Positions 9,635-62,719 are shown, counted from the first letter of the stretch. The stretch is 62,719 nucleotides of DNA from an uncultured virus (IMG/VR IMGVR_UViG_3300043567_001092) (IMGVR_UViG_3300043567_001092), one strand, 5' to 3'. The notes: generated by a model from the letters alone, not told the origin. A program made the numbers and translations.

Positions 9635-9635
9635 A

Positions 9636-10597: not shown

Positions 10598-10797
10598 TGA
10601 GGAAAAGAGTACAGATAGACAGACAAATTAATGAGAATCTCAGAGACCCTTTTTACGTAAAGCTTAGTAATCAATTTAATTATTATGCTTACAATGACAT
10701 TAGGTCTAACCTATACCCAGAACTTTTCTTGATTGTATACGATCAATTATATAATAATATATATTATGTCATGAGAGAATTGGTAGTGTCAAAATGA
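10597..10797 (+). CDS. MKKRxQ-family microprotein 27
   Basis: Starts MRKRVQI. Confidence 0.8.
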   Translation: MRKRVQIDRQINENLRDPFYVKLSNQFNYYAYNDIRSNLYPELFLIVYDQLYNNIYYVMRELVVSK

Positions 10798-11039
10798 AAA
10801 AGCGAGATCGGTTACTAGATAACACAATGAGTCGGTTAATAGATCTTTTAGAAGACAGGCTTGAGAATAAGATAGTGGATTATTTGGGTTGTCAGTTAGA
10901 TGATAAGTTATATTATGAGTTTAGAAGTGAGTTAAGAATTAAGTTTTATGATCGGTTAGTAGATCAAATGAATAATCAACTAAGACATCATTTAAGGACG
11001 CAAGTATATGGAGTCGAGAGAAAACATAGAAATATTTGA
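10794..11039 (+). CDS. MKKRxQ-family microprotein 28
   Basis: Starts MKKRDRL, clear 4-residue Leu periodicity. Confidence 0.8.
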   Translation: MKKRDRLLDNTMSRLIDLLEDRLENKIVDYLGCQLDDKLYYEFRSELRIKFYDRLVDQMNNQLRHHLRTQVYGVERKHRNI

Positions 11040-11187
11040 TTATACTCGTATAATAATGAGATCGTCATATTTTTCTTCTAACAAAATTATATTTGAAACA
11101 GATCAAAAGCTCATGTGTATGCTAATTCCATTTTTTCTAGAAATGAGGCAGCAAATCAGGGAGCATATTACGGGCAATTGCAAATGA
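11008..11187 (+). CDS. MKKRxQ-family microprotein 29 (divergent, 59 aa)
   Basis: Starts MESRENI, contains MRQQIREHI, ATGA overlap with the next gene. Confidence 0.6.
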   Translation: MESRENIEIFDYTRIIMRSSYFSSNKIIFETDQKLMCMLIPFFLEMRQQIREHITGNCK

Positions 11188-11363
11188 AGAAACGTAAACA
11201 GATTTTCTTGAAGGAATATAACCGCGTATTTACTAAAATGGGTATGCCACTTCCGTCTTCAGTTGAAGAGGCGGTAGAAACTCAGTTAAAAGATAAGCTT
11301 AGGGATGAATTGTTACACCAACTTAGGCTTCACGTTAAAACCCATTTAATGGAAATGAAATGA
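11184..11363 (+). CDS. MKKRxQ-family microprotein 30
   Basis: Internal ATG gives MKKRKQI. Confidence 0.8.
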   Translation: MKKRKQIFLKEYNRVFTKMGMPLPSSVEEAVETQLKDKLRDELLHQLRLHVKTHLMEMK

Positions 11364-11554
11364 TTAAAAGAAAAATGATACAATACAATTTTAAGACTTT
11401 GTTCCACGATTGCCTGTATTCTCAACTTGAGCCAATATTGTATCATAGGCTAAGAGACAGCTTAAACCATAAGCTTCAGCACTATACGCATAACCCACTT
11501 AAGATAGAGCTTTACTATCACATGAATGAAAAGAAAAGCTCCAATTCTAATTAA
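11360..11554 (+). CDS. MKKRxQ-family microprotein 31
   Basis: Starts MIKRKMI. Confidence 0.78.
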   Translation: MIKRKMIQYNFKTLFHDCLYSQLEPILYHRLRDSLNHKLQHYTHNPLKIELYYHMNEKKSSNSN

Positions 11555-35699: not shown

Positions 35700-35888
35700 A
35701 TGACTAAGCGCGAATTGTCCGCATCTGTTTACATATTGGTTACTTTTATTATATGCTATTTTGCTTATGGTGTTTATCAGACAAAACAACAAATTTCTCA
35801 AGCTTGTGAAGATCAGTGCTACCCGGCGGATGTTAAAGACGCAGATATGCAATATTGTAAATGTTTTTACAAAAAAGCTGGGATGTAA
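35700..35888 (+). CDS. Small membrane protein with Cys-rich C-terminus
   Basis: Hydrophobic helix, CxxxC..CxC. Confidence 0.6.
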   Translation: MTKRELSASVYILVTFIICYFAYGVYQTKQQISQACEDQCYPADVKDADMQYCKCFYKKAGM

Positions 35889-36061
35889 TGGTTAAAAGAG
35901 AGCGCATTAGTCTTGGTCTTAATGGTAAAATAAGTTTAGTAATCGGCGATCAAGTCGGATACGATCTATTAAATCATTTGTACACGAAGCTCTATAAAGA
36001 TTTAAACTATAGTATTGCAATTAAACTACGTTCATACTTATACGAGAAACCCCAAAAATGA
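35888..36061 (+). CDS. MKKRxQ-family microprotein (dispersed)
   Basis: ATG at 35888 gives MVKRERI. Confidence 0.7.
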   Translation: MVKRERISLGLNGKISLVIGDQVGYDLLNHLYTKLYKDLNYSIAIKLRSYLYEKPQK

Positions 36062-36255
36062 ATAAGAGAGATCAACACACCATTTCATTTGATTATGAGC
36101 TGAGGACAGTATTTCATAATTATTTTTCAACACAAATGCATGGCGATCTTACAAGAGATGTGTGGATGGAAATTTGGGAAAAACTCGCCTACCAACTAAA
36201 AGATAATATGAAAGATAAAGTTAAAGACGTAATTAAGGACAGAATTTCAAAATGA
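36058..36255 (+). CDS. MKKRxQ-family microprotein (dispersed)
   Basis: Starts MNKRDQH, contains WEKLAYQL. Confidence 0.72.
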   Translation: MNKRDQHTISFDYELRTVFHNYFSTQMHGDLTRDVWMEIWEKLAYQLKDNMKDKVKDVIKDRISK

Positions 36256-38347: not shown

Positions 38348-40519
38348 TTAATATATCTCTCGCCATTGTAATCCAGCTGATATATTTGTGGCTTTTGTAT
38401 CAATATTTTTAACAATTATGACATAAACTTCCGAGTTAGTAGAATCAAAATTTTGCACTATATAGTTCTTTTTAGCCGAACTTGGAATTACTGCATTTGA
38501 ATCGCTTCCAGCCTTACTTCCGCCTTGTGACGCAGATGCTGCAAACCCAACGCTTAGTATGTCTGCATTTGTATATCCAGTCGCATTAGCTAGATATTCA
38601 ACGCCACTTTCAGAGTTAGTACTGGTCCACACTCCAGCTCCACCTGTTAAGTTAGACGCATTTTGTAATTTTGCTATAGAAAATTGAACGTTACCAGAAT
38701 CAGTGAAAACTGTAACTTGTCCTAGTCTAGCTAACATACGATTTAAATATGTTTTATAATTATTTTTCAATCTAATTGCTAATATTGGTAAAGTTTGACC
38801 TGTGCCCAAAAGTCTTGGTGTGGGACTTGCAAGCGCCCAATCAATTCCAGCCTCAACATATCCGCCTTCACTAACAACTGTACTACAAATTTGATCCATA
38901 TATGCACCAGTTGTAACTCCGGTGTTAAATATTTCGCAGCGAACTGGCAAATTTGGATTACTCATATAAACTGTAGTAAGATTATTTTCGCCATCAAAAT
39001 GATGCGCCTCAATATATTTACCCTCATGAGAAAACCCAACCCTGACTCTTCCCACGCCAAGCCATTGAAAATCTATAAAAAGCAACTGAGTTTTTGTAAT
39101 ATCTAAGTTTAAAGAACTAATTCCAGTTCCATCGCACTTGTCAACATTCCAATTTAACTGAGAAACTCTATTTTCATTGACGGCACCATTAATATAGCTT
39201 CTTAAGACAATATTTAAGGTTCCGTTTCCGGTTTGTTCAAAGTAAATTCCATTATTATCATCAAACAGCCCAGTTCTTTTTGTCACCCCTGAAGTACTTG
39301 AATAAAAATTAAAGGATGACATTATTAGCTGGCTTTTTCCTGGCATATAATGATGATAGCATTTGGTCTGGTGTATCGCCTTACTATTAACATCACTGCT
39401 GGTAGTCAATCTCGCGCATGCTTTATTTGATTGAAATGAAATAGTTCCACCATTTAATGTATAGTCTATGAAATTTGGGTCTATTCCGTAGAGATGTTTA
39501 TAGTCTCCAAGGGTATACGGCTCGCTCACTCTTTGTCTTGCAAAAGCATCTAGTGTGCCGACCCCAGGAGTTGTAAAAACAGATCCGGATACTACCCACG
39601 GATTTGTTCCTTGATTTGCAGTAACTGTTCCGTTTACAGTTTGAGTTGCCGGGAAATTACCAACATCAACTGTTCCGTTTACAGTTTGAGTTGCCGGGAA
39701 ATTACCAACATCAACTGTTCCGTTTACAGTTTGAGTTGCCGGGAAATTACCAACATCAACTGTTCCGTTTACTGTTTGTGTAGCTGGGAAATTACCAACA
39801 TCAACTGTTCCGTTTACTGTTTGTGTAGCTGGGAAATTACCAACATCAACTGTTCCGTTTACTGTTTGTGTAGCTGGGAAATTACCAACATCAACTGTTC
39901 CGTTTACTGTTTGTGTAGCTGGGAAATTACCAACATCAATGGAAGAGTTTAAAAAATATACGTCTAACCCAATATCAGTTCCAACAGTATGCGATGTTAA
40001 AAAATTGGTTCCGTCTCCAAGACGAACAGAATCATTTGTATGTGTAAGATCAACGTCTAGGCTAACTTCTGGCTTAATTGTAATATTTGCATCAACAGCA
40101 AGTCTATTAACTCCATTTTCATCTGCTACAAATTCTGCATACTGACCATATTTATCTACGAGGATTGATCTTTTTGCATTTATTGGATCTTCTGCATGAC
40201 TAGCTCTTTCAAAAATCTCCATTCCCATCGGATTTCTTTGTTGTTCCCAAGCAGTTAAGGTTCCGCCGGAGTACGAAGTAGGATTGGAAAATGTGGCCAT
40301 GTCTTTTCCAACTGGACCGACTTGAATCTGAGTGTCAGAGATAACTCTCTTAATTTCAAGCTCTAGTTGTTCTAAGCCTGTTTTATTTAAATATACCAAT
40401 TGTTTAGGATGTAATAATCCTTGAGTATCTGGTACTGTAATTATATGATTTGAAACTTGAATCGGATTGGCTAAAAATGTAGGCCACCGTCTATCAAACG
40501 ACGAAGTTAACTTGCTCAT
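38348..40519 (-). CDS. Virion protein with 15-aa repeat stalk and C-terminal beta-sandwich-like region
   Basis: 7 x DVGNFPATQTVNGTV. C-terminal DAFARQRVSEP..IDFQWLGVGRVR region typical of large-phage structural proteins. Late motif upstream. Confidence 0.65.
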   Translation of the reverse strand: MSKLTSSFDRRWPTFLANPIQVSNHIITVPDTQGLLHPKQLVYLNKTGLEQLELEIKRVISDTQIQVGPVGKDMATFSNPTSYSGGTLTAWEQQRNPMGMEIFERASHAEDPINAKRSILVDKYGQYAEFVADENGVNRLAVDANITIKPEVSLDVDLTHTNDSVRLGDGTNFLTSHTVGTDIGLDVYFLNSSIDVGNFPATQTVNGTVDVGNFPATQTVNGTVDVGNFPATQTVNGTVDVGNFPATQTVNGTVDVGNFPATQTVNGTVDVGNFPATQTVNGTVDVGNFPATQTVNGTVTANQGTNPWVVSGSVFTTPGVGTLDAFARQRVSEPYTLGDYKHLYGIDPNFIDYTLNGGTISFQSNKACARLTTSSDVNSKAIHQTKCYHHYMPGKSQLIMSSFNFYSSTSGVTKRTGLFDDNNGIYFEQTGNGTLNIVLRSYINGAVNENRVSQLNWNVDKCDGTGISSLNLDITKTQLLFIDFQWLGVGRVRVGFSHEGKYIEAHHFDGENNLTTVYMSNPNLPVRCEIFNTGVTTGAYMDQICSTVVSEGGYVEAGIDWALASPTPRLLGTGQTLPILAIRLKNNYKTYLNRMLARLGQVTVFTDSGNVQFSIAKLQNASNLTGGAGVWTSTNSESGVEYLANATGYTNADILSVGFAASASQGGSKAGSDSNAVIPSSAKKNYIVQNFDSTNSEVYVIIVKNIDTKATNISAGLQWREIY
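39623..39937 (-). repeat. 45-bp coding tandem repeat, 7 copies in two synonymous subtypes (4+3)
   Basis: Read directly from the sequence. Confidence 0.92.
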
Positions 40520-40595
40520 AATAAAATTTCCCCAACCCAATGAAATTATTCATTTATGCCCCACGGCATTACTAAACCAATGTCTAGCTAATTAA

Positions 40596-40603
40596 AGATT
40601 AGG
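40596..40603 (-). promoter_or_regulatory. Putative late promoter motif CCTAATCT
   Basis: Intergenic, upstream of 40519. Confidence 0.65.
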
Positions 40604-40643
40604 GTACTATTATTTTTTAATTTTAATTAATGTAATTAATGAT

Positions 40644-40841
40644 TTAAATGCGTTTTGAAGTCTGAATATATCTTTGCGCCTGTTCTTTGGTTTCTTTATA
40701 TAAAACATCAAATAACATACTGCCGAGATTTGAATATGATTTTGAATAAATACTATAGGATGGCATGTTGCAATATTTTGAATACAGCCTGCTTCTGAAA
40801 CTAGTAAGGTGTGCGCTCCCCAATGCTTCTCGTTTTTCCAT
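40644..40841 (-). CDS. MKKRxQ-family microprotein (dispersed)
   Basis: Starts MEKREAL. Confidence 0.7.
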   Translation of the reverse strand: MEKREALGSAHLTSFRSRLYSKYCNMPSYSIYSKSYSNLGSMLFDVLYKETKEQAQRYIQTSKRI

Positions 40842-40842
40842 C

Positions 40843-41034
40843 TTATTTGCCTATTTTTTCTTCATATAATTGTTGGTGAGTTTGATCTCTTAATTCGTAC
40901 CAGAGCGTGATGTCTTTTAATTGCTCCCAAATTTGGGCATACATTTGATCTGATATTGTGGAATGGAGCCACATATACAGTTCGTCCCTAAATCTCTCTC
41001 TTAGTTTATCCCGAAACTGCTCTCTTTTTCTCAT
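40843..41034 (-). CDS. MKKRxQ-family microprotein (dispersed)
   Basis: Starts MRKREQF, contains ELRDQ and WEQL. Confidence 0.8.
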   Translation of the reverse strand: MRKREQFRDKLRERFRDELYMWLHSTISDQMYAQIWEQLKDITLWYELRDQTHQQLYEEKIGK

Positions 41035-41226
41035 TTATGTATTTTTCTTTTGGGTTTCGTGACAGATTTGTTCACATATTTGATCAATCAATTCTGCATT
41101 GATTTCATATATTTCTTCCCAAGTCCCTTCTAAAACATTATCAATAACGTCACCATATACGTTTCTATCAATCATTTCATATAAATGATCTTTGATTTTT
41201 CTATATATCTGATGACGTTTTTTCAT
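41035..41226 (-). CDS. MKKRxQ-family microprotein (dispersed)
   Basis: Internal ATG at 41226 gives MKKRHQI. Confidence 0.78.
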   Translation of the reverse strand: MKKRHQIYRKIKDHLYEMIDRNVYGDVIDNVLEGTWEEIYEINAELIDQICEQICHETQKKNT

Positions 41227-41233
41227 TGTATGC

Positions 41234-42340
41234 CTACAATCTGATAACTTTGCCGAAATCGCCTGGTGGATTTTGTGACCCAACTCCTACCCAAATAAAG
41301 GGAATGCCTGGATTTGTCGGCGTGTCTGCGCAATCAAAATCACCGAAATATATAATAGCGTCACATTTTCTTTTTACGCATTCGTCAATTGCTGGTTGAT
41401 ATGCAGTTCCACCGCTACCAAATCTTTTTGTTAATACACCAGGTTTAGCTTTTCCACCTTTAATTACATCAACTTTTTGCACTTCAGAATCTGCGTGGAC
41501 TAAGTAAGTGATCGTAGTATTTTTTGCTATAGATGATATTTCATTTAAGAATGATGAGTAAGCTTCGTCCGAGATTGACCCTGACGAATCAGTACATACA
41601 CCAAGTATTAAATTTCTTTTCTTTTTCTTGCCTGGTTGATCTAGCTCAAATCTTCTGTGAGTTTTAAGGCGTGTGCTTTTAGTTTGGACGTCCCTAGCCG
41701 ATGAAACAAAGTTTCTTAAGAGCTGCTTCCAGCTAATTGTCGCTGGTTTATTTAAATTACCAATGATAGACTCTAATCCATTCGGAACAAGCCCACCAGA
41801 TGCCTTTATGGCTTGATTAACCTTGTCTTTAATAATCACTCTATCTAAATCGCCTTTTTCGCTTTCGTTCATTTCATCATGATCGCTCATCCACGATGCT
41901 ACTTCTTGCTTATCTGCTACTTCTGCCATTTCTTTGTAATAGTATTCCCAAGACTCTTTTGGCAAAAGTTTCTTCTTACACATTTCTTCTGCCCACGCAA
42001 GCGTAATGCAATCTGATGGTAAATCAGAAATGTGTTGGTTAATAGCGCAATCTTTTGCTATGTTTGTTAATTGATGATTAAGGATATCTCCAGCCCTATT
42101 GCCGATATGATCTAAAACCGCGTGTAAAACTTCGTGTTTTAACACAGCAATCTGTTGAGCATCGGTTAATGTTGCAAACCAGTCTGGATTTACTTTAAAG
42201 TAAAGCTCTTTGTTCTTAATACCTACGCAAGCTCTTTCAATTTTTGGATCATCATAAACGACTCTAGAGCCTAAAATAAAATTAGCATAGAATCGTTCGG
42301 TATTAATTAACGTAAAAATTGGCTTTTCTAGTAAACCCAT
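41234..42340 (-). CDS. Putative metallopeptidase plus vWA-like protein (DUF2201 type)
   Basis: HEVLH..NIAKDCAINQ, MIDAS-like DSSGS, GGT, YFGD. Confidence 0.88.
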   Translation of the reverse strand: MGLLEKPIFTLINTERFYANFILGSRVVYDDPKIERACVGIKNKELYFKVNPDWFATLTDAQQIAVLKHEVLHAVLDHIGNRAGDILNHQLTNIAKDCAINQHISDLPSDCITLAWAEEMCKKKLLPKESWEYYYKEMAEVADKQEVASWMSDHDEMNESEKGDLDRVIIKDKVNQAIKASGGLVPNGLESIIGNLNKPATISWKQLLRNFVSSARDVQTKSTRLKTHRRFELDQPGKKKKRNLILGVCTDSSGSISDEAYSSFLNEISSIAKNTTITYLVHADSEVQKVDVIKGGKAKPGVLTKRFGSGGTAYQPAIDECVKRKCDAIIYFGDFDCADTPTNPGIPFIWVGVGSQNPPGDFGKVIRL

Positions 42341-42363
42341 GGAAATCTCCTATTATAATAATA

Positions 42364-43422
42364 TTATGCTTTTTCAAACTGAGCTGCGTATTCGGGGTCA
42401 TTTAAGAGATCATTTTTTCCATGGAAATTGCCAAGTTTTCCTAATCCGACAAAGGCTTTCATAGCTAACTCAATTGGGATATCTAGTAGAAATTGCTTTA
42501 GATTATCAATAGACATATCTGCTGAAAGGAGGTGAGGGTTGCTCTCTAGTTTAGCAAATAATTCATCAATTGGCTGATTAAGAACATCCATGCGAACATT
42601 GCTAGCACTTGCCGTGATATCTAATACTTTATTTCTAGCAATTTTTTTGTAGTTTTTAAGAATGTCATTAAGGCTTAATCCTGTTTCTTGCTTAGCTTTG
42701 TGTGTTAATCTAGCCGCTGCTGCAACCGGCCCTACAATACCTGAATATAATTCATATCTTAGACTATCATCTAATCCTTCTTCTAAATCAAGGGCGCCAA
42801 CGCTTTCAAGCCAAGCTCTAGGGTCTCTTGTAACCATTGACATATCAAGTCTTCCGCCTTCTTTTGCAGTAAGATTTAACATCTCAGGTTGTTCACGAAT
42901 AAAAGAAGCAAGGCTAAATAATCCTCTGCTTTCTGCATAAACTAACCATTCTTCAGTTGTAGGAGTGAAATCAATATGACAGAAACGAGATAGCCAAGCT
43001 GAGTCGCTTGTATCTGTTGTAGTGAATCTTTCTGATTGGTAGTTTCCAGCAGCAGCGATACGCCAACCCGGAGGTAATTTGTGTGTATGAATAGTTCCAT
43101 TTTGCACAAAAGAATACATTGCTTGAATTACATCAGTCGGCGCTCTATTTAATTCATCTAAAAAGATAATTCCTTCACCCTCAGTAGGAAACCATTTAGG
43201 TTTTGCATGATAAACTTCGCCGTTTTCGCCTTTAACTAAGAGGCCAACTAAATCGCCCACATCTTGAGTAGCCGTGTGTAAAACTCTTAATTGTAAGTTG
43301 TTCTTTACGCAATACTGATTCCAAAACTGTGTCTTTCCAACACCTTGACTGCCCCAAAAGAATGGAACAATTCGGTTTTTTAATAGAAAAGGAATAGCTT
43401 TGTTGATTTCAGAAATATTCAT
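42364..43422 (-). CDS. MoxR-like AAA+ ATPase
   Basis: Walker A GSQGVGKT, Walker B IIFLDELNRA, AAGN, SRF. ATG at 43422 with GGAGG RBS. Confidence 0.9.
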   Translation of the reverse strand: MNISEINKAIPFLLKNRIVPFFWGSQGVGKTQFWNQYCVKNNLQLRVLHTATQDVGDLVGLLVKGENGEVYHAKPKWFPTEGEGIIFLDELNRAPTDVIQAMYSFVQNGTIHTHKLPPGWRIAAAGNYQSERFTTTDTSDSAWLSRFCHIDFTPTTEEWLVYAESRGLFSLASFIREQPEMLNLTAKEGGRLDMSMVTRDPRAWLESVGALDLEEGLDDSLRYELYSGIVGPVAAAARLTHKAKQETGLSLNDILKNYKKIARNKVLDITASASNVRMDVLNQPIDELFAKLESNPHLLSADMSIDNLKQFLLDIPIELAMKAFVGLGKLGNFHGKNDLLNDPEYAAQFEKA

Positions 43423-43441
43423 CTGGACCTCCGTTTCAATT

Positions 43442-43470
43442 ATCATAACATTTTATTTTCGGTACGTCAA
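43442..43470 (-). promoter_or_regulatory. Sigma70-type promoter for the AAA/vWA operon
   Basis: TTGACG-17bp-TATGAT on the minus strand. Confidence 0.7.
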
Positions 43471-43484
43471 CCTAAAAAAACTTA

Positions 43485-43512
43485 TTGCAAATTGTTTTAT
43501 TTGTGCTACATT
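43485..43512 (+). promoter_or_regulatory. Divergent sigma70-type promoter for the DUF6745-like operon
   Basis: TTGCAA-16bp-TACATT with extended TG. Confidence 0.5.
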
Positions 43513-43545
43513 TAATATGTACCATTTAACAAAAAGGAGCATAAA

Positions 43546-44172
43546 ATGGATAACAAAATTACTGAACTTACCCCAGAACAAGAAGCGTTATTTCCAGCTT
43601 ATTTGGAAAAATTCAGAAATATCGGCCTATCAACTACTCCAACAAATAGACAAAAGGCTGAAGAGGCTTTAACAAAAGCTTATGCTTATTTATCTAAAAC
43701 TGATCCTAATTTATGCGTTCCAAATCCAGAAATCATCTGGGCAGAAAGCCCAATGGCAGGCGCAGTTCTTGCTGCTCAACACGCTAAAGGCGATCTTAAC
43801 GTAACAGATTCAGAAGTGCAAGATCAAGCTTGGCGAGCTTCTTATGGTTCATTCGAGGCATACTGGGTGAGTACTTATTCATTTATCTGCAATGAGCTTC
43901 CAGTAGAAAAAGACGAGCTTATCGACATCGTTATGGAAATCATCAATGAGTGCGGCGTGTACTGGACATATAAAGATTTGGTTATCCTTACTCCAAAGCC
44001 AACTTTTATCGGAATGAAAGACGGAAAATTACACAACTCTAAAGGGCTAGCTTTAGCATATCCAGATGGAAACGGAATCTATGCTGTAAATGGTTCTAGA
44101 AAAAACTCTTTAATTGAAGCTACGTTAGAACAAAGAGCTAACAGCTTAATTGGTTCAACTTCAGAAGATTAA
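43546..44172 (+). CDS. DUF6745-like protein
   Basis: ITELTPEQEA..IGLST.P.NR.KAE..IIWAESP..YW..KP..GKLH....AL.YPDG..IYA.NG matches my recollection of DUF6745. Confidence 0.7.
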   Translation: MDNKITELTPEQEALFPAYLEKFRNIGLSTTPTNRQKAEEALTKAYAYLSKTDPNLCVPNPEIIWAESPMAGAVLAAQHAKGDLNVTDSEVQDQAWRASYGSFEAYWVSTYSFICNELPVEKDELIDIVMEIINECGVYWTYKDLVILTPKPTFIGMKDGKLHNSKGLALAYPDGNGIYAVNGSRKNSLIEATLEQRANSLIGSTSED

Positions 44173-44195
44173 AATAAACACGTATGAGGGTCGCC

Positions 44196-44387
44196 ATGAG
44201 GCAAAGAGATCAGATAAATAGAATAAGCAACAAGTATTTTGATCATATTGACGGCGACCTTTATAATGAAAATTTTCATTTAATATCAGATTATCTCCAA
44301 TACATTTTATACATTGAGCGCTCACCAGTCGATAACATTGTTGACGAGCTATCCACATATATTGAGACTATGAATTTGGGGAATTGA
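44196..44387 (+). CDS. MKKRxQ-family microprotein (array 2)
   Basis: ATG at 44196 gives MRQRDQI. Confidence 0.78.
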   Translation: MRQRDQINRISNKYFDHIDGDLYNENFHLISDYLQYILYIERSPVDNIVDELSTYIETMNLGN

Positions 44388-44392
44388 TTTAA

Positions 44393-44590
44393 ATGAAAAA
44401 ACGCAAGCAGATAGACGGAATCCTTTTTACGATTATTGAAAACAATCTTTACCATCAGGTATACTACGATGTCAATTCAAAAAATCGAGAAAAGATCTAT
44501 ACAGGAATTTACGAACTGCTTATGGATGAACTAAATGTTAAGTTAATAAATATTATTAACGATTTTATTAAATCGAGAAGAGCATCATGA
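44393..44590 (+). CDS. MKKRxQ-family microprotein (array 2)
   Basis: Starts MKKRKQI. Confidence 0.8.
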   Translation: MKKRKQIDGILFTIIENNLYHQVYYDVNSKNREKIYTGIYELLMDELNVKLINIINDFIKSRRAS

Positions 44591-44784
44591 AAAAAAGGGT
44601 TCAGATACCTGATTTTTTAAATGAAAACATATGCGATCATCTTAGATATAGCATATATGTTCAAGTTGATGATACTATTTGGCGTGTAATACTATCTGAA
44701 CTATATATAAAACTTCATGATAAGCTTAACAATACGTTAATTAATGAAACCTGGGATTATATTAAAATGGGGCCAAAAATATGA
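44587..44784 (+). CDS. MKKRxQ-family microprotein (array 2)
   Basis: Starts MKKRVQI. Confidence 0.8.
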   Translation: MKKRVQIPDFLNENICDHLRYSIYVQVDDTIWRVILSELYIKLHDKLNNTLINETWDYIKMGPKI

Positions 44785-44987
44785 AAAAGCGCATCCAATT
44801 TAATGATCCTCTATATAATATATTCTATCCTAAAATTAGAGATAGAGTTAGGCTTGAAATAAAATATAAAACTTTTGAAAAGATAAGCAAGAGACTCACT
44901 GGTGAGCTTAATTCGCAATTCTGGGGCCAAATTGGATATCAGATTGGTAAATACATCGAGGATAGGAGTTCAAGTGAGAAGGCGTGA
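44781..44987 (+). CDS. MKKRxQ-family microprotein (array 2)
   Basis: Starts MKKRIQF, contains SQFWGQIGYQI. Confidence 0.8.
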   Translation: MKKRIQFNDPLYNIFYPKIRDRVRLEIKYKTFEKISKRLTGELNSQFWGQIGYQIGKYIEDRSSSEKA

Positions 44988-45156
44988 GCAGATTACTGAT
45001 CAGCTTAGGGATAATGTTTGGGAATCTTTAAACGGGCAGCTCCAATATCAAATTGAACCAGATATCTATAATAGGCTGCATGACGTTCTGTGCGAAGAAA
45101 AGAGATACAGACTCATAAGCCAATTATATTTATATTTAAGGACTAGGGTTAACTAA
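44974..45156 (+). CDS. MKKRxQ-family microprotein (array 2)
   Basis: GTG at 44974 with AGGAG RBS gives MRRREQI. Confidence 0.78.
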   Translation: MRRREQITDQLRDNVWESLNGQLQYQIEPDIYNRLHDVLCEEKRYRLISQLYLYLRTRVN

Positions 45157-45360
45157 ATGAGGAAACGAGAACAAATCACTAGTCAATTTTCATATCAACT
45201 TTGGGATAGACTTAGAGATGACATATACGTGCAACTGTATTCCTCATTTAATGAGGACATACACAATAAACTCAGGGACAATCTTTGGCTTGAGCTGCAA
45301 ATATTATTGTACGATAGAACGTATAGCTATTTGCAAAACTATATAGGCAAGAAGCAATGA
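45157..45360 (+). CDS. MKKRxQ-family microprotein (array 2)
   Basis: Starts MRKREQI. Confidence 0.8.
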   Translation: MRKREQITSQFSYQLWDRLRDDIYVQLYSSFNEDIHNKLRDNLWLELQILLYDRTYSYLQNYIGKKQ

Positions 45361-45533
45361 AGAAGAATAAAATTATAGAATTTAAATTAAGAGTTAGATT
45401 AAAAGAACAAATCACAAAATCTTGTGGTTCAGATTGTATCAGCACGTCAAGAAAAAAGCTAAGAGAATTATCATCTTACGACTTATATAAAGCGGCTGTT
45501 GGAGAAATTGTCTCTGCTTCTGTGTCAAAATAA
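45357..45533 (+). CDS. Divergent MKKRxQ-like microprotein (58 aa, below track cutoff)
   Basis: Starts MKKNKII, ATGA overlap, same length class. Confidence 0.55.
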   Translation: MKKNKIIEFKLRVRLKEQITKSCGSDCISTSRKKLRELSSYDLYKAAVGEIVSASVSK

Positions 45534-45552
45534 ATATTTTTTAATATTTTTC

Positions 45553-45581
45553 TTGCTTTTAATATCAGATATTGGTAATCT
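45553..45581 (+). promoter_or_regulatory. Sigma70-type promoter
   Basis: TTGCTT-17bp-TAATCT with extended TG, followed by a GGAGG RBS. Confidence 0.5.
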
Positions 45582-45599
45582 AGGTTTATTGGAGGCGTT

Positions 45600-45989
45600 A
45601 TGAAATTCAAAGCCGGAGATAGATTTATAGTTAAGGCAAGCGAGTCTGATTTAGGAGCCACTGGAAAAATAACTGGAATTGGGTTTAATTCTATACGCCA
45701 ATCTGACGAATATAGATATGTTTGGGACCAGCAATTCGGCGGTTCTACTGGGAGCTGTGATACAGAAGTTGGGGATTCTATGTGGGACATTATTGCGGCA
45801 GATATCCACACACATACATACACACATGTTTACACAATTCCTGAAGACAATTATACAATTTCAGTTGGAAACATCGTTTGGAACAATCCTACTTCCAACT
45901 CTACAAATTGTTCCCACGAATATAAAATGTATAATGGATTTACTGAAAGTTATGAATTTTGCATTAAATGCGATAAAAGAAAGATCTAG
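45600..45989 (+). CDS. Hypothetical protein, SH3/KOW-like start and C-terminal Cys/His zinc-ribbon-like motif
   Basis: MKFKAGDR.., CSH..CIKC. Confidence 0.6.
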   Translation: MKFKAGDRFIVKASESDLGATGKITGIGFNSIRQSDEYRYVWDQQFGGSTGSCDTEVGDSMWDIIAADIHTHTYTHVYTIPEDNYTISVGNIVWNNPTSNSTNCSHEYKMYNGFTESYEFCIKCDKRKI

Positions 45990-45993
45990 TAAT

Positions 45994-46212
45994 ATGAGGA
46001 AAAGAGAGCAGCCTAATAATTTGTTTTTTAACCAACTTGTCATAAAGCTTAGGGATCAAGCTGAAAACCAACTTTGTGATAATTTAAGTTATCAACTACA
46101 TGATAATCTTAAGCTTTACAAGATTTGTGAACAGTTTCGCAATACAGCTCTTAATATTATTCGTACACAATCATTAAATGATATTGATAATAAATTAAAA
46201 AGAAAGGTTTAA
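45994..46212 (+). CDS. MKKRxQ-family microprotein (dispersed)
   Basis: ATG at 45994 gives MRKREQP, contains LRDQAENQLCDNLSYQL. Confidence 0.8.
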   Translation: MRKREQPNNLFFNQLVIKLRDQAENQLCDNLSYQLHDNLKLYKICEQFRNTALNIIRTQSLNDIDNKLKRKV

Positions 46213-46213
46213 C

Positions 46214-46561
46214 ATGGAAAATCTATATCTAGACAAAGAGGCTTTTCTTGAAGATGAATATGTGTCTGAGGTTGTAATCATTGACACGTTACCTGGCGGA
46301 TTTAACCAGAGATCTGAATTATTGCCTGAGCCAATTGAAATTTTGAAATTTGAGAAAGTTAGCAGCAAGTTATCTTTGGAAAGAAAAGTAAGACTATCTG
46401 CAAATTATATTACTGCAGAGGAGGGTCTTAAAATGATCCAAAAAAGTGAGAGACTACACGCCAAATCTAATAGAAAATGTACTTCTTGTGGAGGATACGT
46501 CCCAAAAGAAAATTTTAGTAGATGCAATACTTGCGTTAAATTAAAAAATGTGGTAGACTAA
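46214..46561 (+). CDS. Hypothetical protein with C-terminal CxxC..CxxC zinc ribbon
   Basis: CTSC..CNTC. Confidence 0.65.
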   Translation: MENLYLDKEAFLEDEYVSEVVIIDTLPGGFNQRSELLPEPIEILKFEKVSSKLSLERKVRLSANYITAEEGLKMIQKSERLHAKSNRKCTSCGGYVPKENFSRCNTCVKLKNVVD

Positions 46562-46583
46562 TTAGATAAAATAGGTAGTTAAT

Positions 46584-46805
46584 ATGAAGAAACGTAAGCA
46601 AATATCAGATCATATAAGTAATGATTTAAAGTTTGAGCTTTTTGATAGGCTTGAAGAGCAGGTTGATGGTGAACTTTTTGATCAAATTGATGAGGAACTT
46701 TTTGAGTACGTTACAGGTGGAAGCTACATTGACATAGATGTAAACTTAATAAAAGAACAGTTGTTTTCTCATATTGAAAATATAAATGGCCGAAAGGTTG
46801 GTTAA
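46584..46805 (+). CDS. MKKRxQ-family microprotein (dispersed)
   Basis: Starts MKKRKQI. Confidence 0.8.
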   Translation: MKKRKQISDHISNDLKFELFDRLEEQVDGELFDQIDEELFEYVTGGSYIDIDVNLIKEQLFSHIENINGRKVG

Positions 46806-46806
46806 A

Positions 46807-47013
46807 ATGAAAAAACGAGAAGGAATGAAGATTTTGCCGAAAGATCAAATTAGTCCTGAAGTTTGGGATAGAATCGTTAGCCAGCTTGAGAATCGTCTTA
46901 ACGGCCAAAATAAAGCCATAGAGGCGCCAAAAAAAGAAGGCTTTGTAAGATTTCTTAAATATAAGACATACTTTAATGCAATTAAAAATCTATTTAATAA
47001 GAAGGGCGGTTAA
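46807..47013 (+). CDS. MKKRxQ-family microprotein (dispersed, divergent C-terminus)
   Basis: ATG at 46807 gives MKKREGM, contains VWDRIVSQLENRL. Confidence 0.7.
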   Translation: MKKREGMKILPKDQISPEVWDRIVSQLENRLNGQNKAIEAPKKEGFVRFLKYKTYFNAIKNLFNKKGG

Positions 47014-47014
47014 G

Positions 47015-47257
47015 ATGTCTAAGTTGTTTAAGGCTGCTATGAATCTTGTGTGGTACAATGTTAAGACGGAACAAATTGTGACCGGACCTTGCCTTACTAA
47101 TGATTTAAATGTAACATTTCTTGAGGTTGAGCAAGGGCAATACATTTCCGCAAGGCACTTTAATAAAGAAGACTGGGAACTTATTGGGGATTTGGATTCA
47201 TCTTTATCTGAATCATCAACTCAACAAGCTTTAAAATTACGCAATTATATGAGGTAA
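47015..47257 (+). CDS. Hypothetical protein
   Basis: ATG at 47015 follows the upstream stop. Confidence 0.6.
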   Translation: MSKLFKAAMNLVWYNVKTEQIVTGPCLTNDLNVTFLEVEQGQYISARHFNKEDWELIGDLDSSLSESSTQQALKLRNYMR

Positions 47258-47259
47258 TT

Positions 47260-47454
47260 ATGTTTGAGATTATCGGCGCCCTAATAATAGCTTGCAATAA
47301 CTTACAGGCAGTTAATGTTGTGGGTAAGGACGCATCTGTATTTTTAGCTATGAAAAAAGCTGAATGTTCTGAAAGAGTTATAAACTGTATGTATAGCGAG
47401 CTTGTTATTGATAAGAAATTAATTATTAAATGTTCTAAAGAAGTTAAACTATAG
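47260..47454 (+). CDS. Small 4-Cys protein with hydrophobic N-terminus
   Basis: GAGGT RBS, C..CxxxxxNC..CS pattern. Confidence 0.6.
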   Translation: MFEIIGALIIACNNLQAVNVVGKDASVFLAMKKAECSERVINCMYSELVIDKKLIIKCSKEVKL

Positions 47455-47463
47455 GAGTCATAA

Positions 47464-47682
47464 ATGATTACAATAGGCGAATCAGAACTAGCACAGATTA
47501 GACGACTATCATTGAATACGTTTCAAAAAAATTCCAATTTTCCTAAAGAGAGCAAAGATTTGCAATTGTTTTTATTATTAAGTGGCCTAGAAGAATTTTT
47601 AACTTCTAAGGGAATTGAGCCAAACTTTGAGGTATGTTATACTAAAGAGGGCTCTGAGTACCAATCTCCGGTGGAGGAATAA
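47464..47682 (+). CDS. Hypothetical protein
   Basis: AGGAG RBS. Confidence 0.6.
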   Translation: MITIGESELAQIRRLSLNTFQKNSNFPKESKDLQLFLLLSGLEEFLTSKGIEPNFEVCYTKEGSEYQSPVEE

Positions 47683-57727: not shown

Positions 57728-58663
57728 TTAATACGTTTTAATAACTTTATGGCCATTTTTAAGTTCAGCCGGATGAAATTTTAAATTAACATCTTTTGCT
57801 GAAAAAGAAGGTCCTAATTTAGAGAATTGGTCCCACATTTCTTTATCAACAGAGATGTGCGGCAGGAAGTGTGAGAACTTAGGTCCCATATCTTTTGCGT
57901 GTTCTCTAATTTGGTGAATTCTATTTGGTAATCCATAAACCAATAGTACATGGTGTGTTGCGCCATCTAATCCTTGTAACTTGTGTGGCATTAAGGTTAT
58001 TTTGCTTGTGTCTATTGGCTTATGCAAATTATGATCATTTAAAATATTGTGAACTTGGTTTATATCGGCATTATTTCCAAATGCTTTAACTGTCATGTGA
58101 ATTGGATAGTTATTTTCTTGCCTAACAGATTTATTACCAAATGACACCGGATGGAAGAGAATGGTTGAATTGCTTATATCGGCAGGTTTAACGCTTTTTA
58201 ATAGTAATTCATTGAATTCTGGATGTTCATGCAATTGTTTTGCTTTTTTTTCAAATTCTGCTTTTTTTATTTTAGCCATTCGACCTTCATTAAAGGCTTT
58301 TGCATCAGGAGTTTGGTCGGGCGACGGTATGTAATCCTTGCCAGACAATTTCATTGCTGCGTTTACTAAAGAGGTTCCATGACCCTGCCTTCTGTGGTCT
58401 TCATGAACTTCTATGTTAATTGGCATAATTCCTGCTTTTTTATGAGTCACAGCAAGGAAGCCAATTTTGTTATTATTTTTATGAATTTTAACAATAAAAT
58501 CATTTTGTTTTGGATCAAACTTTTTTGCTCCAAGCATAAACGGTTCTACAGTTATTTTTGTTTTTGATTTTTCAGATTTAGCGATTTCTTCGTTTATTTT
58601 TAAATCTTTTAATTCGTTAATGTATTCTTGGGTATGTCTTTTAAAATTTCTCATTGGTGCCAC
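57728..58663 (-). CDS. GNAT-like plus 2H phosphoesterase (Acb1-like) fusion
   Basis: IEVHEDHRRQGHGTSL (GNAT motif A), HMT and HIS (the two HxT/S motifs). Confidence 0.72.
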   Translation of the reverse strand: MAPMRNFKRHTQEYINELKDLKINEEIAKSEKSKTKITVEPFMLGAKKFDPKQNDFIVKIHKNNNKIGFLAVTHKKAGIMPINIEVHEDHRRQGHGTSLVNAAMKLSGKDYIPSPDQTPDAKAFNEGRMAKIKKAEFEKKAKQLHEHPEFNELLLKSVKPADISNSTILFHPVSFGNKSVRQENNYPIHMTVKAFGNNADINQVHNILNDHNLHKPIDTSKITLMPHKLQGLDGATHHVLLVYGLPNRIHQIREHAKDMGPKFSHFLPHISVDKEMWDQFSKLGPSFSAKDVNLKFHPAELKNGHKVIKTY

Positions 58664-61110
58664 TTTCCGTTGATAATTTCATTTGGCATAAGCCCAGCTT
58701 TTTGTTCTGCGTAAATTGTATTTGCTGGATTTGCTTTGTTATGTGCAGCATTTTTACCATAATTTACAACACTGTTTTGGCCCATTGTTTCTGAAGCCAA
58801 AGCTTTTTGAGCCAATGGAGAAAACATTTCTTTATGTGCCAAGTAGCTCGTGTGTTCACCCTTTGGACCAAACGTGCTATTAGTTAACCCATGGCCAAAA
58901 GCATCGTGGACAATTCTAAAGACATCGTTAGCTAGCATTGGCCTATTTTCGTGCATAAATTGAGTTTGCTGTAACAATGGGTGGTTTTTGCTTTGCTCAT
59001 TAGATCCATATCCTTGTTCTGTAGGATAATACCATAGATGATTGTTGACATGCAGATCATGTAGCATGTCCTTTGAGGTTTTGTATGGATTTTCTTGATT
59101 GGGTTGCATTTTAGAAATTTTAAGCCCATTATTAATTAAATGATTAAACTGCTTTCCAGTCTCATTAATTAGAGCGCCGTACGCTGCTTTAACGTCTGGA
59201 TGTTCTGGATTATGTGGCATTGCTTCGTACGCCGCAGCTATTTTAGATCCATGTTCTGGATTTAAACTTACATTATAATTATGGCTTAATTTCATTCCGT
59301 TTAAGTTGGCATAATCTTCTGCCACATTTTTAATATGACTACTTGTTTTAATCAAATTAGATTTAATTAATTTTTTGAAATAACTTTTAACTTTCTTTTC
59401 CATTGGATAACCAACATCTAAAGAAAACCTTACCATTTTCCCATTTGGAAGTTTTATTTCTGAATAGTTATCATTTAGGTGAGACCCTATGACATGGCCA
59501 GACCCACCTTCTGGTGGATTATAATCAGCATGCTTAGTAGTATGTTCTTTGTGGCTTCCAGACGTAGATTGTATATGAGCTTTTTGTTTATATTTATCTG
59601 CCAATTCAGACGCATCTTTTGTTGATAAGTTGTGTACCATTACACTTGGCTCGGCATCTGTTCCAAACCATTTTCCACCGACTGGCGTATAACTATAACC
59701 CTTTTGATTTAGTTCATTTAAAAGATTGTTATGGTTTTGTTGCGACTGCTCAGGAGTCATTGTATTTGTATGGCCAGTTAATAAAGAGAAATTGCCATTT
59801 TTAAGATATTTATCTACATCTTGTTCGTTTTGAAATGGACTAATTTCGGTTTTTTTTAATTCAGATTTTAAAACTTGCTCTTCATGTACTGGATGTGTAT
59901 GATATAATTGTACCACTTGCGTTTCTGGTCTCATCGACCATTTTACGCCATTATATCCATTCTGCTTTAAAAGTCCATGAAATAAATCCTCGTTCCATGC
60001 ACCTTGATTGCTTTGTAAAACTTGTTGAGCGTAATTATTTGGATCTTTGTCATAATCATATACGTTTTCTGGCATCTTAACAGTATATTTAGATTTAGCA
60101 TTTTGTGTGACTAAATCCTCTGGTTTTGAATCTTGGGTATAAAAAAATGATGATTTATTCTCTGGAACGCCTCTTTTGTATTGAGCGCCCTTGACACCAG
60201 ATCCCATTTTAAGTGGGTCTATTTGTTTTAGACCACTCTGTGAGCTATAATGAATTAAATTCGGATTATTCTGATTATGAGACGAGTCCTTAGCTAATGA
60301 TTTTAAGGATTTGTATCCTTTTTCTGAAGCTGCTAATTTTTCTGTCTTATTGGTGGTTTTAAGGCCCTGACTTGCAGCCTTTTTAATATCGCTATCAGAA
60401 TGTTTTTCCCAATAGCTGGCGTGTTGCCAAAGGTCCCATTTACCGCCATGGCCAACTTTATTAAATTCTTTTTCTCCAACATCATCATGTTTAACTTTGA
60501 TTTTGTGCTTTGTCTTATCTTCAGTTTTTGTCGCCGTTACAACCCCAGTCTTTGGAATACTTCCAGGTAGTGCGGATTTCTCTTTTACTTTATCGCCTGC
60601 TTTAAATGGATGAGGAGTTTTTACTTTTTTTTCTTCTGATTTAGTAATTGTAGGAGGCAGAGAATGCTCTTCTTCTTTTGGACCTTCTACAGAACCATCT
60701 GGGTCTGGTGGTCTAGAGCCACTTTTTTGCCAATCAATAAGTATATTATTGGTAGGAAACTTCATTGAATCGTGGTTATTTGGGTCTAGAAATTTATGCG
60801 ACACAAATTCTTGATCTGGATCTTTTGATGCGTCAAACTTATAATCTTTTGGGCAAATTCCGTGAAAAAGAGTTACGTAAGAGTCGCCGTATTCGCCCTC
60901 ATGAACCTTATCAAGTTTAATGCCAGACAGTCCTGCCTCTTCTTCAAGTTCTCTATGTGCCGCTTCTAGTGGAGTCTCTCCGTCATTAGAATGGCCACCT
61001 GGCAAAGTCCAAGTAGATTCTTTTCTATCTAGACCGTGCATATAAAGATTTGGAGCATCTGGGTGCTGTAAAGCTATAACTGAGACTTTTTTATGATATT
61101 GATCACTCAT
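58651..61110 (-). CDS. Multi-domain late protein with N-terminal NUDIX hydrolase
   Basis: Complete Nudix box GHSNDGETPLEAAHRELEEEAGL, then further domains including C-terminal NDVFRIVHDAFGH. Confidence 0.78.
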   Translation of the reverse strand: MSDQYHKKVSVIALQHPDAPNLYMHGLDRKESTWTLPGGHSNDGETPLEAAHRELEEEAGLSGIKLDKVHEGEYGDSYVTLFHGICPKDYKFDASKDPDQEFVSHKFLDPNNHDSMKFPTNNILIDWQKSGSRPPDPDGSVEGPKEEEHSLPPTITKSEEKKVKTPHPFKAGDKVKEKSALPGSIPKTGVVTATKTEDKTKHKIKVKHDDVGEKEFNKVGHGGKWDLWQHASYWEKHSDSDIKKAASQGLKTTNKTEKLAASEKGYKSLKSLAKDSSHNQNNPNLIHYSSQSGLKQIDPLKMGSGVKGAQYKRGVPENKSSFFYTQDSKPEDLVTQNAKSKYTVKMPENVYDYDKDPNNYAQQVLQSNQGAWNEDLFHGLLKQNGYNGVKWSMRPETQVVQLYHTHPVHEEQVLKSELKKTEISPFQNEQDVDKYLKNGNFSLLTGHTNTMTPEQSQQNHNNLLNELNQKGYSYTPVGGKWFGTDAEPSVMVHNLSTKDASELADKYKQKAHIQSTSGSHKEHTTKHADYNPPEGGSGHVIGSHLNDNYSEIKLPNGKMVRFSLDVGYPMEKKVKSYFKKLIKSNLIKTSSHIKNVAEDYANLNGMKLSHNYNVSLNPEHGSKIAAAYEAMPHNPEHPDVKAAYGALINETGKQFNHLINNGLKISKMQPNQENPYKTSKDMLHDLHVNNHLWYYPTEQGYGSNEQSKNHPLLQQTQFMHENRPMLANDVFRIVHDAFGHGLTNSTFGPKGEHTSYLAHKEMFSPLAQKALASETMGQNSVVNYGKNAAHNKANPANTIYAEQKAGLMPNEIINGKWHQ

Positions 61111-61654: not shown

Positions 61655-62614
61655 CTAATCTTTTTCTGTTTTCCAGCCTTGTTTTTGAGCAAGGCTTTGG
61701 TATGCTTCTGGTGTTCTAGGTCCATCAATTATTTTTACGCCGCCAGTAACTTTTCCTAGTTTAGGAGCAGCATATCTAATAAATGTGGCTTCAACTACAC
61801 ATTCAAGTTGGGCCATACAAGTAAAAATTAATTCAATACCATCAAATGACGGATTAACATCAACCGAACCTACAGAAAAAGTACTAAGCTCTAATCCGCG
61901 TCTCTCTAAGTATGCTTCTTTGTATCTTAAAAATATATATTGTATTATTTGTCTAAGCCATAAAACTTGTTGAGTGTCACTTTGTGCGTGAAGTCCTATA
62001 GAAAAAGTTTCATGAAGGTAAGTTACCCCTTGCTCTAAATTCCACAAAGATAATGCAGGTACGATATAGCAATTAGTGAAATCGTCATTTGTATTATCTG
62101 CTATTTTAAAAGTTGTATCGTCTATAACTTTTTCTATTACATATGCTTTTGATGATTTTTTAGAAACCAAGAATTGGCCTGGAGAAACAGCAAACGTAGT
62201 TAATCCAGTTGGCAATGAAACTTCGCCAATTGATTTGTTATATGCTTTAGGAGTGAATTGATCAATTACATTAACAATTTGTCTATTAATTGACTGTGGC
62301 TCAATCTCTTCAGTATAAATTTGATCATCTGCCAATGAGGTTCTATCTAATGCTTCTCTAGATGATGTTCTAACTACTGTGATACATGGCATTTTAGGGG
62401 TGTCGACTCTATTATTGAAATAGACTGGAATTGATGTTTCCATAAACCAAGATTTAGCAGCATATACTTCAGCATAGCCAGAATCTTTTGATGTTAGCGG
62501 ATCGTTTGCAAGACCTGCAAAAATATCCTCTAATATCCAGCTGTTAGACCTTAAATCGGCTAATGCTGCCTCTATTGCTGATTTTACTGCTAGATCTGAA
62601 GCTAAAATGCCCAT
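61655..62614 (-). CDS. Putative neck / tail-completion protein
   Basis: P.MPCITV motif, late context upstream of the sheath region. Confidence 0.5.
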   Translation of the reverse strand: MGILASDLAVKSAIEAALADLRSNSWILEDIFAGLANDPLTSKDSGYAEVYAAKSWFMETSIPVYFNNRVDTPKMPCITVVRTSSREALDRTSLADDQIYTEEIEPQSINRQIVNVIDQFTPKAYNKSIGEVSLPTGLTTFAVSPGQFLVSKKSSKAYVIEKVIDDTTFKIADNTNDDFTNCYIVPALSLWNLEQGVTYLHETFSIGLHAQSDTQQVLWLRQIIQYIFLRYKEAYLERRGLELSTFSVGSVDVNPSFDGIELIFTCMAQLECVVEATFIRYAAPKLGKVTGGVKIIDGPRTPEAYQSLAQKQGWKTEKD

Positions 62615-62637
62615 TGTTTACGTCTCCACCTAAACTA

Positions 62638-62645
62638 AGATTAAG
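62638..62645 (-). promoter_or_regulatory. Variant late motif CTTAATCT
   Basis: One mismatch, upstream of 62614. Confidence 0.5.
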
Positions 62646-62719
62646 ATTTTATATAACACTTATATTATAGCAGGTTTTTAGCTTCTTGACAATTCGTTTT
62701 CTATTTCTTTTACCATTTT

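Follow-up and report, generated by a model that had tools for sequence, protein, structure and literature searches.

Why would a phage encode some 38 microproteins of one family, part of them on either side of an ATPase gene and its neighbors? The question is raised by a stretch of DNA of 62,719 nucleotides from an uncultured virus (IMG/VR IMGVR_UViG_3300043567_001092), called the window below, of which positions 1 to 61880 correspond to the right-hand part (positions 59945 to 121824) of a 121,824-base IMG/VR virus record. The locus of interest holds three larger genes, coding for an AAA+ ATPase, a zincin-like metallopeptidase joined to a vWA domain, and a short protein of the DUF6745 family, with tandem microprotein genes on both sides (Table 1). 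We consider it reasonably probable that the larger genes form a conserved trio and that the microproteins derive from an internal tract of DUF6745 proteins, from which they have become detached, and dock onto one DUF6745 core.

The DUF6745 protein of the window is a short, repeat-less member of its family. Its match to PF20530 (32.5 bits in a second, genome-wide search) covers profile positions 8 to 88/89 of 206, the part from about 89 to 206 being missing, and no second piece of DUF6745 was found in a near-identical phage record of 157,572 bases that is 98% complete. Long DUF6745 forms run about 100 residues further, and the window copy represents a truncated subfamily. The region of about 75 residues upstream of the Pfam domain (LTPEQE..IP.Y...GL.T.P.DR..A....Y....P.I.W.DSP) is present and aligns with that of the proteins of loci L012, L016 and L065, of P0122, and of gp38 from the Mycobacterium phage prophiGD102-1. 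The motifs IIWAESP and EVQDQAW and two YW motifs are recognizable. Of 280 candidates obtained with this protein as the query, 140 were homologues at E ≤ 1e-3; the 120 listed span 188 to 309 aa, and none of them contains a tetrapeptide tract. The EVQDQAW stretch is conserved in the subfamily as VTxxEIxxQAxxASYGSFEAYW, and it could not be demonstrated to be the vestige of a repeat.

Other DUF6745 proteins do carry such a tract, as the sequence-only reading of this DNA had correctly proposed when it placed a tetrapeptide repeat between IIW.xSP- and YW-type motifs. The viral relative L012 encodes an AAA protein, a vWA protein, and a DUF6745 protein in which 18 SQLx units separate IIFLDSP from YPAW, followed by a repeat-less paralogue. 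With the repeat-bearing L012 protein as the query, 388 matches were obtained, and at least four consecutive Q[LVIMF]xx units were present in 118 of the 120 listed, versus 0 of 120 for the window protein; the former figure is inflated because the candidates were chosen by words shared with the repeat-bearing query. The tracts printed for these relatives comprise 7 to 41 units. L012 is a complete 79.8-kb phage in which the repeat-bearing and repeat-less short DUF6745 genes lie in tandem at 7509-8964, after the AAA/vWA genes, an arrangement that may be intermediate between a tract in cis and one in trans.

The protein gp38 of prophiGD102-1 (MW584211, gene 38; PF20530, 101 bits) has the N-terminal domain and the Pfam core in common with the window protein and bears about 50 (D/G)QL(W/R/G) units, at a site that aligns with residues ~75 to ~101 of the window DUF6745. 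These units are of the same kind as those in the microproteins of relatives, and the tract begins ...KGKREQLWGQL, the KREQ[IL] sequence being the same as the microprotein start. In contrast, the window protein lacks both the tract and Pfam positions ~89-206, and the repeat resides in separate genes. The AlphaFold2 (AF2) model of the tract is a helical hairpin (H71-104 and H107-142; predicted local distance difference test [pLDDT] values of 53 to 77).

The microproteins are a real, coding family. The genome contains about 38 paralogues of ~65 aa with an MKKRxQI start and a period-4 hydrophobic pattern; the hydrophobic autocorrelation at lag 4 was 0.257, compared with -0.015 for shuffled sequences (z of 11, and of 7.9 at lag 8). 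A search for the pattern M[KR][KRA][RKN]x[QEG] returned 25 open reading frames (ORFs) of 57 to 82 aa, all within the window, and no ORF with this start in the first 59,944 bases of the 121,824-base record. A model built from 21 microproteins matched 32 of 3,081 stop-to-stop ORFs at E ≤ 1e-3 and gave 38 matches in the near-identical record at E ≤ 0.01. The working class can be described as proteins of ~60-70 aa with a basic M-x-K-[RKH]-x-Q-[ILV] start and a period-4 pattern, in a genome that contains a repeat-less DUF6745, and all of these features were found. Among 27 aligned copies, only M1, K3 and R4 are invariant or nearly so. We rejected the notion that the N-terminal motif is a junction cassette at the DNA level, as its K, R and Q residues are written with varied synonymous codons.

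The family occupies four places, with most copies (about 28) ~32 kb from the trio. Of the three left-hand and seven right-hand microproteins that had been proposed next to the trio, two and six, respectively, are firm; the outermost ORF on each side is doubtful or unsupported. The right-hand tandem genes follow one another closely, at spacings of +5, -4, -4, -14, 0, and -4 nt. Units in this phage are more degenerate than those in the microproteins of relatives, which are plainly the same repeat (MTKHKQLHNQIQDQLWDQLRDQL...EEQDYD in L009 and MTVKKQVRYQIWDQAWEQVRYQV...QVREDLDDR in L065). The least degenerate copy, at 7513-7761 (+), consists of near-pure xQLx units (NQLVNQLRYQLVYQLVYQLVYQLENQL...) and links the diverged copies to the canonical repeat.

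The best relatives of the microproteins proved to be DUF6745 tracts, in line with the earlier suggestion that they are versions of that repeat module. The 27 copies of the window served for an exhaustive profile search of 1.84 billion representatives without a word filter, in which 717 proteins reached E ≤ 1e-3. Among the best 150 of these, 136 match the local DUF6745 model, four are microproteins of this phage, and 10 are long proteins that do not match the model; inspected by eye, two of the 10 look DUF6745-like and eight appear to be unrelated period-4 repeat proteins. A word-indexed search with the microprotein alignment found only six proteins among 95 candidates, four of them tied to the near-identical record.

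If the microproteins are detached tracts, they should accompany DUF6745 proteins that have none. DUF6745 loci from viral contigs and metagenomes were merged at 90% identity into 84 distinct loci, leaving out L001 to L004 (the locus of the window, the near-identical record, and a weak 1.9-kb match) and the duplicate L013. A microprotein was counted as free when the model matched (E < 1e-3) an ORF that was no longer than 170 aa and lay outside the DUF6745 gene. Free microproteins were present at 12 of 56 repeat-less loci versus 0 of 28 repeat-bearing ones (Fisher test, 0.007); at loci of at least 8 kb, the counts were 7 of 25 and 0 of 17 (Fisher test, 0.03). Whole-record searches found free copies in four of five repeat-less relatives; in all five repeat-bearing records (each at least 95% complete), every microprotein match lay inside the DUF6745 gene. 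Adjacency of array and DUF6745 recurs in lineages with QL-type and with QV-type units. The test was also run in reverse, with the degenerate DNA pattern DQLxDQLxDQL, which identified 80 loci in viral contigs. The match was a DUF6745 tract in 26 of the 80, and most small-ORF matches were unrelated simple repeats. True free microproteins were recognized by eye in eight loci from seven records, and four of these seven records have a repeat-less DUF6745.

The action in trans envisaged by the sequence-only reading is consistent with multimer prediction, in which a microprotein docked at the insertion site of the repeat-less DUF6745. The window DUF6745, for which the AF2 model had a pLDDT of 95.2, was modeled with microprotein 45157-45357, each chain with its own alignment. 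The complex scored 0.83 (0.82, 0.83, and 0.85 in the individual runs), and the best of three controls, two with unrelated stand-ins for the microprotein and one with an unrelated protein replacing DUF6745, scored 0.00. Scores this high were obtained for 116 of 157 solved complexes and for 2 of 215 mismatched pairs, a calibration that is only rough here since own alignments were used. The runs agreed in at least 60% of contacts, with about 190 contacts and a partner pLDDT of 80 to 81. In the model, microprotein residues 4 to 7 (R-E-Q-I) contact DUF6745 residues 79-80 as well as residues 140-143 in the region of the GVYWT strand (137-141), residue 60 contacts DUF6745 residue 95, and residues 47 to 51 pack against DUF6745 residues 20-28 and 103-109. 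The modeled contacts thus place the ends of the microprotein at both edges of the site that carries the tract in relatives. The model supports binding, short of showing it. Recall of a solved complex is an unlikely source of the score, as no solved structure with the DUF6745 fold was found: the best Foldseek match had an E value of 0.65 and the best VIA-align match among 48,161 chains had a Z score of 4.4 over 52 residues, although such weak or missing matches do not establish that the fold is new.

The complex model would fit equally well if the microproteins bound DUF6745 as regulators or inhibitors, antitoxin-like or as decoys, instead of replacing its insert. The modeled microprotein covers much of the core, with its about 190 contacts, and many paralogues acting on one target could titrate DUF6745. 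We nevertheless find this alternative unlikely, because the complementarity with the cis tract, the KREQ[IL] start, and the position of the ends at the edges of the insertion site fit a split insert and would be unexpected of an unrelated inhibitor.

How does the AAA/vWA pair relate to DUF6745 and its microproteins? The identities first proposed for the three larger genes were confirmed, by Pfam for all of them and by PHROGs for the ATPase and the vWA protein. The ATPase contains a Walker A (GSQGVGKT) and a Walker B (IIFLDE) motif; together with the AAA_5 match and the adjacent vWA gene, which begins 24 nt downstream, these features place it in the MoxR class. A profile of eight ATPase homologues matched midasin best (6.1e-18), CbbQ (1.6e-3), the MoxR-like structure 2r44 (3.6e-3), and also the D2 domains of ClpA/ClpB; the first three matches assign the protein to the dynein/midasin/MoxR group. 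The vWA protein scored well above the Pfam cut-offs (DUF2201_N, 53.7 bits versus 23.2; DUF2201, 61.4 versus 26.4) and has an HEVLH motif at residue 69 and a MIDAS-like DSSGS motif at residue 251, as befits a protein with both domains. Neither the ATPase nor the vWA protein gave a useful match when searched as a single sequence against the PDB, and NCBIfam had no family for the four proteins tried. A PADLOC match of the vWA protein to RT_I-A (E 4.4e-4) is weak and was taken as chance. The vWA protein has distant homologues in 359 records of cultured phages; those listed include Achromobacter, Erwinia, and Vibrio phages and the Bacillus phages AR9 and PBS1, with the annotation "zincin-like protease fused to vWA domain" in some of them. 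In a search of phage records, the single DUF6745 match was an uncultured virus, and these cultured phages thus seem to be without the trio.

When the comparison was limited to loci of 5 kb or more in which the DUF6745 ORF is complete, an AAA and/or a vWA gene was found at 16 of 19 loci with the short form (ORF ≤265 aa) versus 0 of 29 with the long form (Fisher test, 4e-10); two of the three short-form exceptions are long forms accompanied by a fragment. Microproteins occurred in the locus at only three of these 16 and were missing from the other 13, and arrays of four to eight microproteins flank long repeat-less DUF6745 genes without AAA/vWA (L051, L055/L065, and L063). The pair thus goes with the truncated form: AAA/vWA tracks C-terminally truncated DUF6745, and the microproteins track DUF6745 as such. 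Of the three-way co-occurrence first envisaged, the association of microproteins with repeat-less DUF6745 held, and the tie between AAA/vWA and microproteins did not. The suggested role of AAA/vWA as loader or processor of the microproteins gained no separate support. The neighbors of long DUF6745 genes include genes for a primase, a helicase, RecT, an exonuclease, a methyltransferase, thymidylate synthase, and ribonucleotide reductase.

Several points weigh against a detached tract that docks in trans. Besides the inflated count of repeat-bearing relatives, the Fisher tests ignore shared ancestry, 44 of the 56 repeat-less loci showed no microprotein in the fetched flanks, and the majority of the copies in this genome are 32 kb away from DUF6745. 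No DUF6745 was seen in three of the seven records with free microproteins, which are fragments, 3 to 25% complete. The microprotein model was trained on this phage's own copies, and period-4 low-complexity sequence can match by composition, as 8 of the 10 long non-DUF6745 matches appear to do. Finally, the AF2 confidence in the cis hairpin is modest (53 to 77), the repeat-less paralogue in L012 adjoins a repeat-bearing one, and binding is read from the model's own confidence score.

Some of these points would be expected if the microproteins were an independent, fast-evolving family of early genes inserting in any early operon, with a convergent likeness to the tract and a chance adjacency to DUF6745. 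The distance of the largest array from the trio, the 13 of 16 short-form AAA/vWA loci without a microprotein, the unrelated period-4 repeat proteins that match the profile too, and the many DQLx DNA-pattern matches in viral contigs that are unrelated simple repeats would all agree with it. We hold this explanation to be quite improbable, given that DUF6745 provides 136 of the 150 best profile matches, that free copies are confined to repeat-less loci (12 of 56, compared with 0 of 28), that the adjacency recurs in QL-type and QV-type lineages, and that stand-ins for either partner in the complex all scored 0.00.

A pair like the one in the window has been described in group 2.2 jumbo phages by Iyer et al. 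(2021, Viruses, PMC7824862), as MoxR with an N-terminal metallopeptidase-vWA protein. The two genes and the domain order (zincin HExxH, then vWA) are the same; the passages on that pair name no third partner, whereas here a short DUF6745 accompanies the pair, at 16 of 19 short-form loci. The same passages propose a role in virion assembly, with peptidolytic processing. Transferred to the window, the AAA+/zincin-vWA pair would be an assembly chaperone and protease, to which DUF6745 and the microproteins would relate as clients, scaffolds, or packaged internal proteins, and MKKRxQI would be a targeting or cleavage signal, not a DUF6745-docking element. The pair adjoins a virion structural gene on the same strand, and the near-invariance of only the N-terminal M, K, and R columns in the 27 paralogues is signal-like. 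The internal proteins of phage T4 share just a short N-terminal capsid-targeting sequence, which is removed by the prohead protease. However, the arrays at L051, L055/L065, and L063 stand beside DUF6745 with no AAA/vWA within 10 kb, long DUF6745 genes lie among replication and not structural genes, the complex model places the N-terminal motif on DUF6745 itself, and no tested result ties the peptidase to the microproteins. A function in virion assembly therefore seems to us improbable.

Two further systems bear comparison. Kaur et al. (2020, eLife, PMC7159879) report vWA-MoxR ternary systems with a conserved third protein, VMAP or iSTAND, some of which, in the sections concerned, add a zincin metallopeptidase and a small diverging protein or tandem small proteins (DUF397). 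The trio likewise consists of MoxR, vWA, and a conserved third protein. According to those sections the ternary systems are bacterial and enriched in multicellular forms, whereas the trio is phage-borne; here, moreover, the peptidase is fused to the N terminus of the vWA protein, and the third gene is only DUF6745 by Pfam. We thus regard the likeness as an apparent resemblance in organization, not as membership. Mycobacteriophage Tweety gp54, with Che8 gp57 and PMC gp51, as far as the account in PMC2884959 goes, has unique termini flanking 15 to 48 copies of a 12-bp, four-residue repeat with two fixed and two variable positions, and Tweety can evade the Phrann gp29/gp30 defense through changes in the number of repeats, as related in the review PMC9262239. 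The portrayal of gp54 in these sources illustrates, as a precedent, how a phage can make use of a variable tetrapeptide tract, with two differences: its units are AAxx, not xQLx, and the descriptions given there mention no detached copies. Homology between gp54 and DUF6745 was undetected, gp54 having no Pfam family and tblastn with gp38 matching nothing but itself and a single uncultured virus.

The DUF6745 family is large and predominantly viral, the Atlas listing clusters that are 59 to 91% viral. Cyanobacterial DUF6745 clusters of 62 and 103 members in the Atlas are fused to leucine-rich repeats, a lead that the domain works with repeat-type recognition modules. Our literature search found no paper naming DUF6745, and apparently none on this system under DUF2201.

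With these comparisons in mind, the detached-tract reading can be put in mechanistic terms. The trio would consist of a MoxR/midasin-class AAA+ ATPase, a zincin-peptidase-vWA adaptor, and a C-terminally truncated, repeat-less DUF6745. The helical microproteins of ~65 residues would be detached and diversified versions of the variable (xQ[LV]x)n tract, which is internal and forms a helical hairpin in other DUF6745 proteins, and each microprotein would dock onto a single DUF6745 core. At one end, the conserved MKKRxQI start would rest on the conserved GVYWT strand and on the upstream margin of the insertion site; at the other, the C terminus would be close to the downstream margin, so that one core could accept many exchangeable inserts. 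We favor a role in phage-host conflict in which recognition is the task of the variable hairpin; its variable surface may recognize changing targets, early or midway in infection. The AAA/vWA-peptidase may act on the short DUF6745 and replace its missing C-terminal half.

A bolder version, which we offer tentatively and consider doubtful, is that the phage has split a hypervariable insert into a genome-encoded library, and that the MoxR ATPase and peptidase-vWA adaptor load, exchange, or clear inserts on the truncated core. The ~38 helical-hairpin microproteins, with their common MKKRxQI docking motif, would then provide combinatorial recognition surfaces for use against changing host targets such as defense proteins, comparable to the tunable Tweety gp54 tract. 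The analysis gives DUF6745 three handles, namely a separately encoded variable tract, predicted docking residues, and a link of its truncated form to the MoxR/vWA-peptidase pair, which is present in hundreds of cultured phages. If the split-insert reading is true, a protein surface would be diversified by swapping encoded inserts in trans, which would point to a function for tetrapeptide-repeat mini-genes in large freshwater phages.

The sequence-only reading had also placed back-to-back sigma-70-type promoters between the divergent genes. The leftward one was retrieved, with an extended -10 element; downstream of it lie a GGAGG sequence and the ATG at 43422. On the plus strand, no site reached the scan threshold of 9/12; the one picked by eye, TTGCAA-16-TACATT, matches at 8/12. 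Promoter-like sites are not enriched in 40000-47500 (27, versus 30.8 +/- 5.9 in shuffled sequences). The first ATG of the ATPase ORF falls within the -10 hexamer of its own promoter-like site, and ATPase homologues align from residue 8 or 9. Given this and the GGAGG and ATG after the promoter, the ATPase probably starts at Met9 (43422), eight codons after the start of the longest ORF.

Table 1. Features of the window, in window coordinates
Feature	Position	Strand	Evidence and remarks
Main microprotein array, about 28 genes	5438-11554	+	Pattern search and model matches; 32 kb from the trio
Two diverged microproteins just upstream of an exonuclease gene	35861-36255	+	Model matches
Virion structural gene	38348-40540	-	phrog_1645, 6.7e-103; 730 aa
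Doubtful microprotein (MEKREA...)	40644-40841	-	E 0.13; no match in the search of the near-identical record
Microprotein (MRKREQF...)	40843-41034	-	Firm, 2e-19
Microprotein (MKKRHQI...)	41035-41226	-	Firm, 1.8e-18
Zincin-like metallopeptidase + vWA	41234-42340	-	DUF2201_N 3e-14, DUF2201 1.2e-16; phrog_1314 1.4e-54
MoxR/midasin-class AAA+ ATPase	42364-43446	-	AAA_5 23.9 bits (cut-off 22, weak); phrog_1297 2e-50
Sigma-70-like promoter, TTGACG-17-TGtTATGAT	43470..43442	-	10/12 + extended -10; consensus match only
Short repeat-less DUF6745 (208 aa)	43546-44172	+	PF20530 32.8 bits (cut-off 27), E 5.3e-8
Microprotein	44199-44387	+	Firm; start moved to MRQRDQI
Microprotein	44393-44590	+	Firm
Microprotein	44587-44784	+	Firm
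Microprotein	44781-44987	+	Firm
Microprotein	44974-45156	+	Firm
Microprotein	45157-45360	+	Firm
Small ORF (MKKNKII...)	45357-45533	+	Family membership unsupported: E 4, no match in the near-identical record
Further microprotein	45994-46212	+	Beyond the right end of the region first noted
115-aa protein between the two further microproteins	46214-46561	+	C-terminal CxxC...CxxC pair, zinc-ribbon-like
Further microprotein	46584-46805	+	Beyond the right end of the region first noted

The 115-aa CxxC...CxxC protein found no match in a PHROGs search. The region as a whole is present in lake-water metagenomes, and the phage is uncultured, with zero megablast matches of the region to 50,697 phage records. 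None of the 24 lake-water and freshwater runs listed as containing the region was an RNA run. Contigs from four runs compared with the region gave near-identical fragments and nothing firm. One low-depth contig, from a single run, joins 40631 to 45531 and skips 4,899 bases, approximately the whole span of trio and microproteins; we do not trust this junction, since its shorter side is only 24 letters long, AT-rich, and without a flanking repeat. No direct repeats flanking the module were found.

The final 839 bases of the window (61881-62719), which contain no N, are absent from the 121,824-base record, which contains neither the first nor the last 50 of them. The virion structural protein has its nearest counterparts in Synechococcus cyanophages (S-RIM32, 51% identity over 55% of the query). 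This 730-aa protein contains seven tandem 15-residue units (VDVGNFPATQTVNGT), encoded at about 39623-39939, where the window holds one extra 45-bp unit relative to the 157.6-kb record (the alignment offset shifts by 45 bases). Elsewhere in the window, three tandem paralogous genes at 1079-3183 (-) encode tail-fiber/collar-like proteins of 225, 245, and 228 aa (phrog_9116, up to 2.2e-26), and an 819-aa protein encoded at 58651-61110 (-) combines an N-terminal Nudix-like region (phrog_1198, 6.2e-11) with a match to phrog_3170 (4.8e-22).

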